From the NCBI RefSeq assembly GCF_011045215.1, contig NZ_CP049201.1: 64,000 nucleotides of DNA; one strand, given 5' to 3'. Below the pieces are notes generated by a model. The model had not been told where the DNA came from. It was given only the letters and a program-made list of their open reading frames with translations, and did not search any database. The stretch comes from Escherichia coli (GTDB lineage Bacteria > Pseudomonadota > Gammaproteobacteria > Enterobacterales > Enterobacteriaceae). Made by a program: the position numbers and the translations under genes. Shown here piece after piece: positions 20,672 through 42,583 of the stretch (position 1 is its first letter; each line of letters opens with the position of its first letter).

Positions 20672-20838
20672 TTTTTCTGTTCATCATCTTGCCGTGCTGC
20701 TGGCACGGCAAGACAACCATTCTCGTAAGATGTGCATTGAACGCTCATTCCTCCGCCATTTCATCCCGCTTTCCTGTGGTAATCTTCCTCTGAACCACCT
20801 ACGATCATTTCTATAATGAATATATTGTTGAGGTATCT

Positions 20839-26740: not shown

Positions 26741-26804
26741 TTCCTGAGACAAAGTACAAACAGCAAGAACCCGCTGAGCAGGTTCTTAATCGGAAAGTTG
26801 AAAA

Positions 26805-26838
26805 AGGCGACACATTGGCATGTCGCCTTTTTTATTGC
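26805..26838. terminator. Bidirectional rho-independent terminator (ypfM / acrD)
   Basis: aaaaaGGCGACAcattggcaTGTCGCCttttttatt: GC stem flanked by A-run and T-run, between convergent ypfM and acrD. Confidence 0.65.
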
Positions 26839-39183: not shown

Positions 39184-41463
39184 ATGGATGACCAGTTAAA
39201 ACAAAGTGCACTTGATTTCCATGAATTTCCAGTTCCAGGGAAAATCCAGGTTTCTCCAACCAAGCCTCTGGCAACGCAGCGCGATCTGGCGCTGGCCTAC
39301 TCACCAGGCGTTGCCGCACCTTGTCTTGAAATCGAAAAAGACCCGTTAAAAGCCTACAAATATACCGCGCGCGGTAACCTGGTGGCGGTGATCTCTAACG
39401 GTACGGCGGTGCTGGGGTTAGGCAACATTGGCGCGCTGGCAGGCAAACCGGTGATGGAAGGCAAGGGCGTTCTGTTTAAGAAATTCGCCGGGATTGATGT
39501 ATTTGACATTGAAGTTGATGAACTCGACCCGGACAAATTTATTGAAGTCGTCGCTGCGCTCGAACCGACCTTCGGCGGAATCAACCTCGAAGACATTAAA
39601 GCGCCAGAATGTTTCTATATTGAACAGAAACTGCGCGAGCGGATGAATATTCCGGTATTCCACGACGATCAGCACGGCACGGCAATTATCAGCACTGCCG
39701 CCATCCTCAACGGCTTGCGCGTGGTGGAGAAAAACATCTCTGACGTGCGGATGGTGGTTTCCGGCGCGGGCGCCGCAGCAATCGCCTGTATGAACCTGCT
39801 GGTAGCGCTGGGTCTGCAAAAACATAACATCGTGGTTTGCGATTCAAAAGGCGTTATCTATCAGGGCCGTGAGCCAAACATGGCGGAAACCAAAGCCGCA
39901 TATGCGGTGGTGGATGACGGCAAACGTACCCTCGATGATGTAATTGAAGGCGCGGATATTTTCCTCGGCTGTTCCGGCCCGAAAGTGCTGACCCAGGAAA
40001 TGGTGAAGAAAATGGCTCGGGCACCAATGATCCTGGCGCTGGCGAACCCGGAACCGGAAATTCTGCCGCCGCTGGCGAAAGAAGTGCGTCCGGATGCCAT
40101 CATCTGTACCGGCCGTTCCGACTACCCGAACCAGGTGAACAACGTCCTTTGCTTCCCGTTCATCTTCCGTGGCGCGCTGGACGTTGGCGCAACCGCCATC
40201 AACGAAGAGATGAAACTGGCGGCGGTACGCGCGATTGCAGAACTGGCCCATGCGGAACAGAGTGAAGTGGTGGCTTCAGCGTATGGCGATCAGGATCTGA
40301 GCTTTGGTCCGGAATACATCATTCCAAAACCGTTTGATCCGCGCTTGATCGTTAAGATCGCTCCTGCGGTCGCGAAAGCGGCGATGGAGTCGGGCGTGGC
40401 GACGCGTCCGATTGCTGATTTCGACGTATACATCGACAAGCTGACTGAGTTCGTTTACAAAACCAACCTGTTTATGAAGCCGATTTTCTCCCAGGCTCGC
40501 AAAGCGCCGAAGCGCGTAGTTCTGCCGGAAGGGGAAGAGGCGCGCGTTCTGCATGCCACTCAGGAACTGGTAACGCTGGGACTGGCGAAACCGATCCTTA
40601 TCGGTCGTCCGAACGTGATCGAAATGCGCATTCAGAAACTGGGCTTGCAGATCAAAGCGGGCGTTGATTTTGAGATCGTCAATAACGAATCCGATCCGCG
40701 CTTTAAAGAGTACTGGACCGAATACTTCCAGATCATGAAGCGTCGCGGCGTCACTCAGGAACAGGCGCAGCGGGCGTTGATCAGTAACCCGACAGTGATC
40801 GGCGCGATCATGGTTCAGCGTGGCGAAGCCGATGCAATGATTTGCGGTACGGTGGGTGATTATCATGAACATTTTAGCGTGGTGAAAAATGTCTTTGGTT
40901 ATCGCGATGGCGTTCACACCGCAGGTGCCATGAACGCGCTGCTGCTGCCGAGTGGTAACACCTTTATTGCCGATACATATGTTAATGATGAACCGGATGC
41001 AGAAGAGCTGGCGGAGATCACCTTGATGGCGGCAGAAACTGTCCGTCGTTTTGGTATTGAGCCGCGCGTTGCTTTGTTGTCGCACTCCAACTTTGGTTCT
41101 TCTGACTGCCCGTCGTCGAGCAAAATGCGTCAGGCGCTGGAACTGGTCAGGGAACGTGCACCAGAACTGATGATTGATGGTGAAATGCACGGCGATGCAG
41201 CGCTGGTGGAAGCGATTCGCAACGACCGTATGCCGGACAGCTCTTTGAAAGGTTCCGCCAATATTCTGGTGATGCCGAACATGGAAGCTGCCCGCATTAG
41301 TTACAACTTACTGCGTGTTTCCAGCTCGGAAGGTGTGACTGTCGGCCCGGTGCTGATGGGTGTGGCGAAACCGGTTCACGTGTTAACGCCGATCGCATCG
41401 GTGCGTCGTATCGTCAACATGGTGGCGCTGGCCGTGGTAGAAGCGCAAACCCAACCGCTGTAA
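39184..41463 (+). CDS. maeB: NADP-dependent malic enzyme MaeB (malic enzyme + PTA-like domain)
   Basis: 759-aa [38 protein letters not shown]. Confidence 0.9.
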
Positions 41464-41755
41464 TTTTTTTTAACTCTCACGCTTACCCTGAATATTCAGG
41501 GTAAGCAGTTTAGCTGCAATATATTAGTAAAGCTTATTACTGAGTTTGCGAATAATAAAAAAAAGCAGTCTATATAATATCTCGATATTATTTTATTTAT
41601 ATTCATGCGTTGCATATGAAAGTTTATGCACCACAGCGAATATCTCTCCATTCTTAGTGATCTACCTCACCTTTTAAACGCGCTTGCCGAATTTTGTTAT
41701 TTACTCTGACGAAAAATTGTCACGATACACGCAAGTTTTTCACAGGCGGCGACTC

Positions 41756-42091
41756 ATGGATAAAGAACGCATCATTCAGGAATTTGTGCCCGGCAAACAG
41801 GTCACGCTGGCGCATCTCATCGCGCATCCCGGCGAGGAACTGGCGAAGAAAATCGGCGTTCCGGATGCTGGCGCAATCGGCATTATGACGCTAACTCCTG
41901 GCGAAACGGCGATGATCGCCGGTGATTTAGCATTGAAAGCCGCCGATGTGCATATCGGTTTTCTCGACCGTTTTAGCGGCGCGCTGGTGATTTATGGCTC
42001 GGTGGGTGCAGTAGAAGAAGCGTTATCACAAACCGTCAGTGGTTTAGGTCGCTTATTAAATTATACGCTTTGTGAAATGACCAAAAGTTAA
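41756..42091 (+). CDS. eutS: Ethanolamine microcompartment shell protein EutS (BMC domain)
   Basis: ATG at 41756 gives [25 protein letters not shown] (111 aa); first gene of eut operon. Confidence 0.85.
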
Positions 42092-42103
42092 TACGAGGCA
42101 TTC

Positions 42104-42583
42104 ATGAAACGAATTGCGTTTGTGGGTACCGTCGGGGCAGGGAAAACAACGTTATTTAATGCGTTGCAGGGGAATTATACCCTCGCCAGAAAAACACAGG
42201 CCGTGGAATTTAATGATAAGGGCGATATTGATACGCCGGGTGAATATTTTAGCCATCCCCGCTGGTATCACGCCTTAATTACCACGCTACAGGATGTGGA
42301 CATGCTGATCTATGTCCACGGCGCGAATGACCCGGAAAGTCGGTTGCCTGCCGGGTTGCTGGATATTGGCGTCAGCAAACGGCAAATCGCCGTCATCAGT
42401 AAAACGGACATGCCAGATGCTGACGTCGCCGCAACGCGAAAGTTATTGCTTGAGACTGGCTTCGAAGAGCCGATTTTCGAGCTAAACAGCCACGACCCGC
42501 AAAGCGTGCAGCAACTGGTGGATTATCTGGCATCTCTCACCAAACAGGAGGAAGCAGGTGAAAAAACTCATCACAGCGAATGA
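42104..42583 (+). CDS. eutP: Ethanolamine utilisation acetate kinase/GTPase-like protein EutP
   Basis: 159 aa with P-loop GTVGAGKTT. Confidence 0.85.
   Translation: MKRIAFVGTVGAGKTTLFNALQGNYTLARKTQAVEFNDKGDIDTPGEYFSHPRWYHALITTLQDVDMLIYVHGANDPESRLPAGLLDIGVSKRQIAVISKTDMPDADVAATRKLLLETGFEEPIFELNSHDPQSVQQLVDYLASLTKQEEAGEKTHHSE

Follow-up and report, generated by a model that had tools for sequence, protein, structure and literature searches.

A perfect 26 bp palindrome downstream of maeB in Escherichia coli is probably the DNA image of a gene-end RNA hairpin

Introduction

The intergenic region between maeB and eutS of Escherichia coli contains a perfect palindrome of 26 bp, and the question that it raises is whether the symmetry belongs to the DNA or to the RNA transcribed from it. 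The initial annotation of the 64 kb stretch of E. coli DNA analysed here (the window) considered the palindrome to be atypical for a Rho-independent terminator and proposed that it could be a binding site for a dimeric protein in the region upstream of eutS. The analysis described below leads us to a different reading. The palindrome is most probably the DNA image of an RNA stem-loop which ends the maeB transcript and which lies at the position of a terminator found throughout the family, as judged from sequence comparison.

Results and discussion

Sequence, position and rarity of the palindrome

The coordinates of the features discussed here are presented in Table 1. The palindrome consists of two arms of 13 nt (41481-41493 and 41494-41506) which are 100% complementary and are separated by a gap of 0 nt, and the perfect inverted repeat of the initial annotation is thereby borne out. 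Two details of its surroundings needed correction. The distance from the maeB stop codon (TAA, 41461-41463) is 17 nt (41464-41480) rather than 18 bp, and the run of T residues ahead of the palindrome is T8 (41464-41471) rather than T7. As maeB and eutS lie on the same strand, the palindrome falls within the 3' untranslated region of maeB, and the eutS start lies 250 nt further downstream. A segment of 401 nt spanning the site has a match in 5,423 of the 5,426 complete E. coli genomes, in which the annotated order is always maeB then eutS, and the maeB-eutS intergenic sequence of the window differs by one base from that of K-12 MG1655. In the K-12 record (NC_000913.3) the palindrome is found at 2,576,055-2,576,080, between maeB (b2463) and eutS (b2462), and nothing is annotated there in the RefSeq record.

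Table 1
Features of the maeB-eutS region (positions are those of the window)
Feature	Position	Strand	Description and basis
maeB CDS	39184..41463	+	759 aa, NADP-dependent malic enzyme; ORF list and RefSeq annotation of matching E. coli records
Spacer between stop codon and hairpin, 17 nt, TTTTTTTTAACTCTCAC	41464..41480	+	T8 in K-12-type strains, TTCTTTTTT in most E. coli
Perfect 26 bp palindrome, GCTTACCCTGAATATTCAGGGTAAGC	41481..41506	+	Sequence, RNA fold, conservation
Eroded residual U-tract, K-12 type, AGUUUAGCUG	41507..41516	+	Population and sister-species comparison
Escherichia-specific AT-rich segment	41507..41650	.	Alignment, composition, intergenic lengths
Cross-genus conserved eutS upstream block	41652..41755	+	Alignment
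eutS CDS, 111 aa, first gene of the eut operon	41756..42091	+	Translation, RefSeq annotation

A palindrome of this kind is far beyond chance. No other perfect palindrome without a spacer in the window has arms of at least 8 nt, and the longest arm found in 30 mononucleotide shuffles of the window was 6-9 nt, compared with 13 nt here. The number of 13+13 nt palindromes expected in the window is approximately 64000 x 4^-13, or about 1e-3. Near-copies with up to three mismatches were found neither elsewhere in the window nor in 100 shuffles. When loops of up to 10 nt are allowed, eight perfect stems of at least 9 bp are present in the window, of which the maeB palindrome is the longest. We note two other long perfect stems in the window (26801-26832 and 20687-20713). 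One, AAAAAGGCGACA-loop-TGTCGCCTTTTT, has a 12 bp stem flanked by A5 and T5 and resembles a bidirectional terminator. The other, TCTTGCCGTGC-loop-GCACGGCAAGA, has an 11 bp stem of -20 kcal/mol and is without a U-tract.

The RNA hairpin and its tail

In its RNA form the palindrome folds into an 11 bp stem (41481-41491 with 41496-41506) closed by an AUAU loop (41492-41495). Most E. coli have a twelfth pair, C-G, between 41480 and a G at 41507; the K-12 type has an A at 41507 and this pair is lost. The centroid structure has an energy of -19.5 kcal/mol (z = -3.6), and hairpin stabilities in E. coli range from -19.5 to -20.9 kcal/mol, which is comparable with canonical terminator stems. A stable G+C-containing stem-loop is therefore present on the sense strand 17 nt beyond the maeB stop codon, as in an intrinsic terminator, but the U-rich tract of such a terminator (approximately five or more U in eight) is absent in E. 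coli. The tail in the window, AGUUUAGC, has three U in the eight positions after the stem, and the E. coli tail is GUUUAGCU. There is no A-tract, and a promoter and terminator consensus scan of 41300-41900 called no terminator-like or promoter-like site. The description of the palindrome as atypical for a Rho-independent terminator was consequently sound. The accompanying claim that no U-tract follows it is correct for a full tract but overlooks a remnant of three U (AGTTTAGCTG).

The U-tract is polymorphic across E. coli, where it occurs as GGTTTAGCTG, GGTTTGGCTG, AGTTTAGCTG, GGTTTTCCTG and GGTCCAGCTG. Population variants of 41507-41516 besides the K-12 sequence AGUUUAGCUG are GGUUUAGCUG, GGUUUGGCUG, GGUUUUCCUG and GGUCCAGCUG; strain 0H24 has the tail GUCCAGCU, and one population variant, GGUCCAGC, retains a single U. 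With only three U, and only one in that variant, classical criteria predict poor intrinsic termination in E. coli. A hand calculation of the d'Aubenton-Carafa score gives a negative value for E. coli, a borderline one for E. whittamii and a strongly positive one for Citrobacter.

Searches of families and of the literature returned nothing for this element. An Rfam scan of 40800-42300 at E <= 1 gave no family match, and a full-text literature search for the core CCCTGAATATTCAGGG gave no paper containing it. The maeB 3' end, sought by gene name, b-number and K-12 coordinates, is absent from the text supplements of Adams 2021 and TERMITe 2025.

Comparison across the Enterobacteriaceae

For comparison, 80 loci from as many species were fetched with the MaeB C-terminus. 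Nearly all of them have a strong hairpin (-15 to -47 kcal/mol) 0-20 nt past the maeB stop codon, whichever gene lies downstream. In the genera in which eutS is adjacent to maeB (Citrobacter, the Klebsiella oxytoca group, Pseudocitrobacter and Yokenella) maeB is followed by a textbook intrinsic terminator, GGCGCGGG-loop-CCCGCGCC, which begins 19-20 nt from the stop codon and has six or seven T in the next 8 nt (a T5-7 run). A similar canonical terminator is found 3' of maeB in Salmonella. The E. coli hairpin begins 17-18 nt past the stop codon, compared with 19-20 nt in Citrobacter and Klebsiella, and the 5' flank CTTTAAT(T)AATTC is common to Citrobacter and to a divergent Escherichia lineage, here termed L009.

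The relatives nearest to E. coli are informative about the tail. In E. whittamii the tail is GAUUUUUAUAU, with TTTTTATAT directly 3' of the hairpin as in Citrobacter, and its sequence AUUUUUAU is U-rich, as are the orthologous positions in Citrobacter and Klebsiella (six or seven in eight). Escherichia sp. MOD1-EC7003 has the tail GGUUUUAUUG, with GGTTTTATTG after the hairpin compared with GGTTTAGCTG in E. coli proper. Since these sister lineages retain a better U-tract, the U-tract that seems to be missing in E. coli is best described as eroded.

Several of the loci surveyed have a more elaborate or disrupted arrangement after maeB. In Salmonella enterica subsp. diarizonae and arizonae the canonical terminator GGCGCAGG..CCTGCGCTTTTTT follows maeB; eutS lies approximately 2.1 kb from maeB in diarizonae and is missing from the 2.5 kb examined in arizonae, which indicates that extra DNA has been inserted between maeB and eut. 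In 13 loci, from Enterobacter, Leclercia, Lelliottia and other genera, the first 110 nt after maeB contain arrays of palindromic repeats of the GGGAGAGGG/CCCTCTCCC type. In five others REP-like GTCGGGTGGCGC...GCTTACCCGAC units replace the simple terminator after maeB; the 9-mer CGCTTACCC is common to this REP-like unit and the E. coli hairpin, which is probably a coincidence. In E. coli 19AR0656 (NZ_CM132277.1, locus L006, 3085-3850) an IS1 element lies directly after the maeB stop codon, and the strain lacks the hairpin together with the entire intergenic region, eutS and the 5' portion of eutP.

Conservation and copy number in E. coli

The 30-mer containing the palindrome is identical in 5245 of 5410 E. 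coli records (97.0%), loop included. The next 30 nt downstream of the hairpin are identical in 37% of the genomes, for a 30-mer taken midway through the AT-rich spacer the figure is 68%, and by this contrast the hairpin forms a conservation island. Closer to eutS, the 30-mer 41655-41684 of the conserved block is identical in 99.4% of the genomes. The hairpin is kept in 5,409 genomes, whereas at least 80% of the intergenic region is retained in 5,282. Loop and stem are equally invariant within E. coli, and for the loop a model based on RNA alone does not demand this.

These figures bear directly on the possibility that the palindrome is a functionless relic, in which an ancestral terminator decayed after the insertion of AT-rich DNA and the palindrome persisted by chance or through low mutation input. 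The eroded and polymorphic U-tract of E. coli and the weak termination predicted by classical criteria are what a relic would be expected to show. However, decay is difficult to reconcile with the conservation contrast between the hairpin and its flanks, with the retention of the stem across Escherichia species which are 5-8% apart in maeB and with the fact that the observed substitutions keep pairing. We therefore regard a functionless relic as unlikely.

It could also be asked whether the palindrome is a copy of a REP/BIME-like or MITE palindromic element, or a recombination site. REP-like arrays do follow maeB in Enterobacter, Leclercia, Raoultella and others, and IS1 insertions occur near the site in some E. 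coli strains. Against this, each of the 5,426 E. coli genomes has one palindrome locus (the palindrome is matched on both strands, which accounts for the two places reported in each genome), whereas REP and BIME elements are present in many copies. The palindrome has no Rfam match and departs from the REP consensus of E. coli. Scans of metagenomes and viruses with a degenerate hairpin pattern gave 121 matches, of which 83 lie after maeB; the flanks of the other 38 are unrelated, with the exception of an E. coli copy located at the edge of a contig, and several of these 38 resemble the terminators of other organisms. A mobile or repeat origin was rejected on the basis of the copy number and these scans, and we consider it extremely improbable.

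Stem variants within Escherichia

The DNA dyad is not perfect throughout the genus. T:G oppositions interrupt it in three other Escherichia lineages as well as in E. coli strains E4 and MSB1_4I. In all four of the stem variants listed in Table 2 the maeB-sense strand has a G·U pair at the altered position, where the opposite strand has an A·C mismatch, and by pair counts 97.9% of the plus strand is paired compared with 93.8% of the minus strand. Lineages also differ in the centre of the palindrome, which measures either 6 or 7 nt, so that the total length changes from 26 to 27 bp. Such a change is harmless to a loop, but would displace or rotate the half-sites of an operator for a dimer. The strand asymmetry represents approximately four substitution events (p ~0.06 if transitions are random), with no double compensatory changes. 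It favours an RNA hairpin on the maeB strand, and this evidence is directional rather than conclusive.

Table 2
Hairpin variants in Escherichia and fold energies of the two strands
Lineage or strain	Sequence	Length (nt)	+ strand (kcal/mol)	- strand (kcal/mol)
Escherichia sp. MOD1-EC7003 (L007)	GCTTACTCTGGATTATTCGGGGTAAGC	27	-16.8	-8.1
E. whittamii (L008)	GCTTACCCTGAGTAATTCGGGGTAAGC	27	-20.1	-16.2
E. coli MSB1_4I	GCTTACCCTGTTTATTCGGGGTAAGC	26	-19.1	-14.7
E. coli E4	GCTTATCCTG...CAGGGTAAGC	26	-16.9	-12.8

The perfect form is found in E. coli and in the more distant lineage L009 (92.9% maeB identity), and the wobble form in lineages at 92-96%. The idea that the perfect palindrome was derived from a wobble ancestor was withdrawn, because L009 is perfect while closer lineages (95-96%) have the wobble; the polarity of the change cannot be inferred from this distribution.

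Strain MSB1_4I also indicates to which gene the element belongs. It carries a 1.7 kb insert with a minus-strand glycosyltransferase gene between the hairpin and eutS, and the hairpin is still found 17 nt after maeB. The element is thus tied to maeB and not to eut. We note that in this strain (NZ_LR898874.1, locus L088, 502-2536 and 2911-3608) the insertion encodes a family-4 glycosyltransferase and a separate IS1 element lies between eutS and eutP, and that the strain with the insertion also has the wobble variant of the hairpin.

The AT-rich segment and the eutS upstream block

The initial annotation was correct in describing the region upstream of eutS as AT-rich, with 72% A+T at 41507-41650. 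The 144 nt of this stretch contain 21 C and 20 G, and a mild excess of C over G is present only at 41607-41706 (25 C and 15 G). With no C-over-G bias in the 144 nt downstream of the hairpin, a typical rut site is not evident. The AT-rich segment of approximately 130 nt is found only in Escherichia; it is absent in Citrobacter, Klebsiella and Pseudocitrobacter and is approximately 55 nt shorter in lineage L009. The maeB-eutS intergenic length is 291-293 nt with the segment, compared with 158-161 nt in the sister genera, in which the terminator is followed directly by the block that is conserved at approximately 41652-41755 of the window.

From Escherichia to Klebsiella and Yokenella this block scarcely varies (TTCTTAGTGATCTACCTCACCTTTTAAA...TTGCCGAATTTTGTTATTTACTC...AAAAATTGTCACGAT; also TTAGTGATCTACCTCACCTTTTAAA). 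A sigma-70 consensus scan called no promoter-like site within it. It is nevertheless the likely seat of the EutR site and of the EutR-dependent eutS promoter, separate from the palindrome, and EutR has been reported to bind 'immediately upstream of eutS' (PMC4643982). In our view, the regulatory DNA relevant to eut biology is this block and not the palindrome.

An imperfect inverted repeat, TGCGTTGCATA / TATGCACCACA, is present at 41606-41635 (82% complementary, with an 8 nt gap), and the Citrobacter maeB terminator was placed opposite it by MAFFT. This repeat may be a terminator relic or a coincidence in AT-rich DNA. As a relic of the maeB terminator it was tentatively set aside in favour of positional homology at the palindrome, where both the spacing to the stop codon and the 5' flank agree.

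The palindrome as a possible operator

The alternative raised by the initial annotation is that the palindrome is an operator for a dimeric protein, acting on eut, antisense or maeB-proximal transcription, or that it serves as both hairpin and operator. The symmetry itself invites this view. The dyad is perfect through its centre in E. coli, 13+13 nt, a symmetry that a hairpin in RNA would not require; the site is invariant, loop included, in 97% of E. coli genomes; and the TGAAT/ATTCA half-sites resemble those of ARG boxes and Cra sites. The resemblance does not extend to spacing. The ARG box is TGAAT-W4-ATTCA, with a 4 bp centre, and the Cra site is TGAAWC-GWTTCA, with a 2 bp centre, whereas in the palindrome the half-sites abut; both were rejected on this basis. 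The same fate befell LexA and the lux box (CTG-N10-CAG needed, CTG-N6-CAG found), the NarL 7-2-7 arrangement (heptamers matching the consensus at five of seven positions but spaced by 6) and a MerR-type operator (the flanking -35 and -10 elements which it requires are not present). EutR belongs to the AraC family, members of which do not typically use perfect palindromes, and we know of no operator with the right spacing.

Protein-DNA contact in the neighbourhood has been recorded: genomic SELEX with the RpoS holoenzyme gave a peak listed for the eutS-maeB spacer, at a resolution of 100-300 bp (PMC5493296). Most simply, this peak represents RNA polymerase on AT-rich or promoter DNA.

The comparative data weigh more heavily against an operator. 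Half-sites and their spacing are not conserved at the orthologous loci: the dyad is broken by T:G oppositions in MOD1-EC7003, E. whittamii, MSB1_4I and E4, the change of the dyad from 26 to 27 bp at its centre would rotate the half-sites, and every change keeps the RNA hairpin, on the maeB strand only. The eut-carrying genera Citrobacter and Klebsiella have an unrelated GC-rich terminator at the equivalent position, which means that no operator is conserved with eut. The element moves with maeB and not with eutS upon the 1.7 kb insertion. It lies approximately 145 nt upstream of the conserved eutS block, with no promoter-like site in 41300-41900, and it has no second copy in the 5,426 E. coli genomes. 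The proposal of a dimeric-protein site for the eutS upstream region is thus left without support by the terminator equivalence, the broken dyads, the linkage to maeB, the distance and the single copy, and we consider an operator or a dual-use element to be quite unlikely. The small probability which we leave to either role is owed to the invariance of the loop in E. coli. One specific form of it, to which we give very little credence, is that the dyad has been co-opted in E. coli alone as a candidate site for a dimeric protein, or as a nucleation point for a cruciform or a nucleoid protein, and insulates or modulates eut together with the AT-rich insert. If true, this would explain the invariant loop in 97% of the genomes.

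Proposed role of the maeB 3'-end hairpin

We return to the reading that the palindrome encodes an RNA hairpin at the end of maeB. In E. coli this hairpin is probably a weak terminator, a barrier to 3' exonucleases, or both, and the best reading of the data is a weak intrinsic terminator or pause site which doubles as an exonuclease barrier and so defines the maeB 3' end. RNA polymerase moving past maeB would transcribe the hairpin 17 nt after the stop codon, just outside the footprint of the terminating ribosome. The hairpin (-19.5 to -21 kcal/mol) and its short U-tract would cause pausing and partial intrinsic termination. Nothing else that is terminator-like was called between maeB and eutS by the consensus scan, and transcripts that read through may end in the untranslated AT-rich spacer by means of Rho, of a nucleoid-protein roadblock or of both. 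Their ends would then be trimmed back to the hairpin by 3'-5' exonucleases. In this way the hairpin would fix and protect the mature maeB 3' end and may help to shield the inducible eut operon from the constitutive transcription of maeB. The anatomy, the equivalence in position to terminators, the strand-specific retention of pairing, the linkage to maeB and the conservation island are observations; from them we infer the termination itself, the protection of the 3' end and the division of work between intrinsic and Rho-dependent termination.

In evolutionary terms, the U-tract appears to have been eroded to UUU in E. coli proper, where AT-rich DNA of approximately 130 nt now separates the hairpin from the eutS promoter block. 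The full self-complementarity of arms and loop in E. coli would be incidental to function. MaeB is not co-induced with the Eut proteins by ethanolamine plus B12 (bioRxiv 10.1101/2024.03.04.583360), which fits separate control of the two transcription units and is silent on readthrough from maeB into eut.

For annotation, the value of this interpretation is that it would locate the end of the maeB transcript in K-12 at approximately 2,576,055-2,576,080 of NC_000913.3. More generally, the locus would be a tidy case of an intrinsic terminator which loses its U-tract beside an AT-rich insertion while its stem remains under selection. The pattern agrees with the view that 3' stem-loops are retained to protect RNA ends after efficient termination has been lost.

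Comparison with known systems

Dimeric-factor operators, such as the ArgR ARG box, the sites of Cra and the LacI family and the LuxR-type boxes of 18-20 bp, share with the palindrome a perfect dyad, an operator-like length and, in part, TGAAT/ATTCA half-sites. The maeB dyad differs from them in lying away from a promoter, in its lack of conservation as DNA in sister lineages and in its linkage to maeB. REP and BIME elements at mRNA 3' ends are likewise intergenic hairpins able to block 3' exonucleases, and REP-like arrays occupy the same position after maeB in Enterobacter, Leclercia and Raoultella; the maeB hairpin differs in being single-copy and in lacking the REP consensus.

A closer parallel is found among the 3' ends described by Dar and Sorek (2018), who reported that E. 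coli mature mRNA 3' ends can lie immediately after stable stem-loops without U-rich tails or A-tracts, and that these stem-loops protect Rho-dependent transcripts from PNPase and RNase II (PMC6061677). The E. coli maeB hairpin is likewise a stem-loop at a gene end without a U-rich tail or an A-tract. It differs from that class in its downstream sequence, which is AT-rich with C approximately equal to G, whereas the class has a mild downstream enrichment of C over G, taken as rut.

The resemblance to the intrinsic terminators of the Enterobacteriaceae is one of structure and of position: on the sense strand, a stable stem-loop lies a few nucleotides past the ribosome footprint at the stop codon, where Citrobacter, Klebsiella and Salmonella have their canonical maeB terminator and where sister Escherichia species keep U4-U5. 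The E. coli element differs in having UUU only (one U in one variant), in the absence of an upstream A-tract and in a stem of greater length and lower GC content than the canonical stem. Taken with its sequence relatives, it is most likely an ordinary gene-end RNA hairpin of a known kind, descended from an intrinsic terminator.
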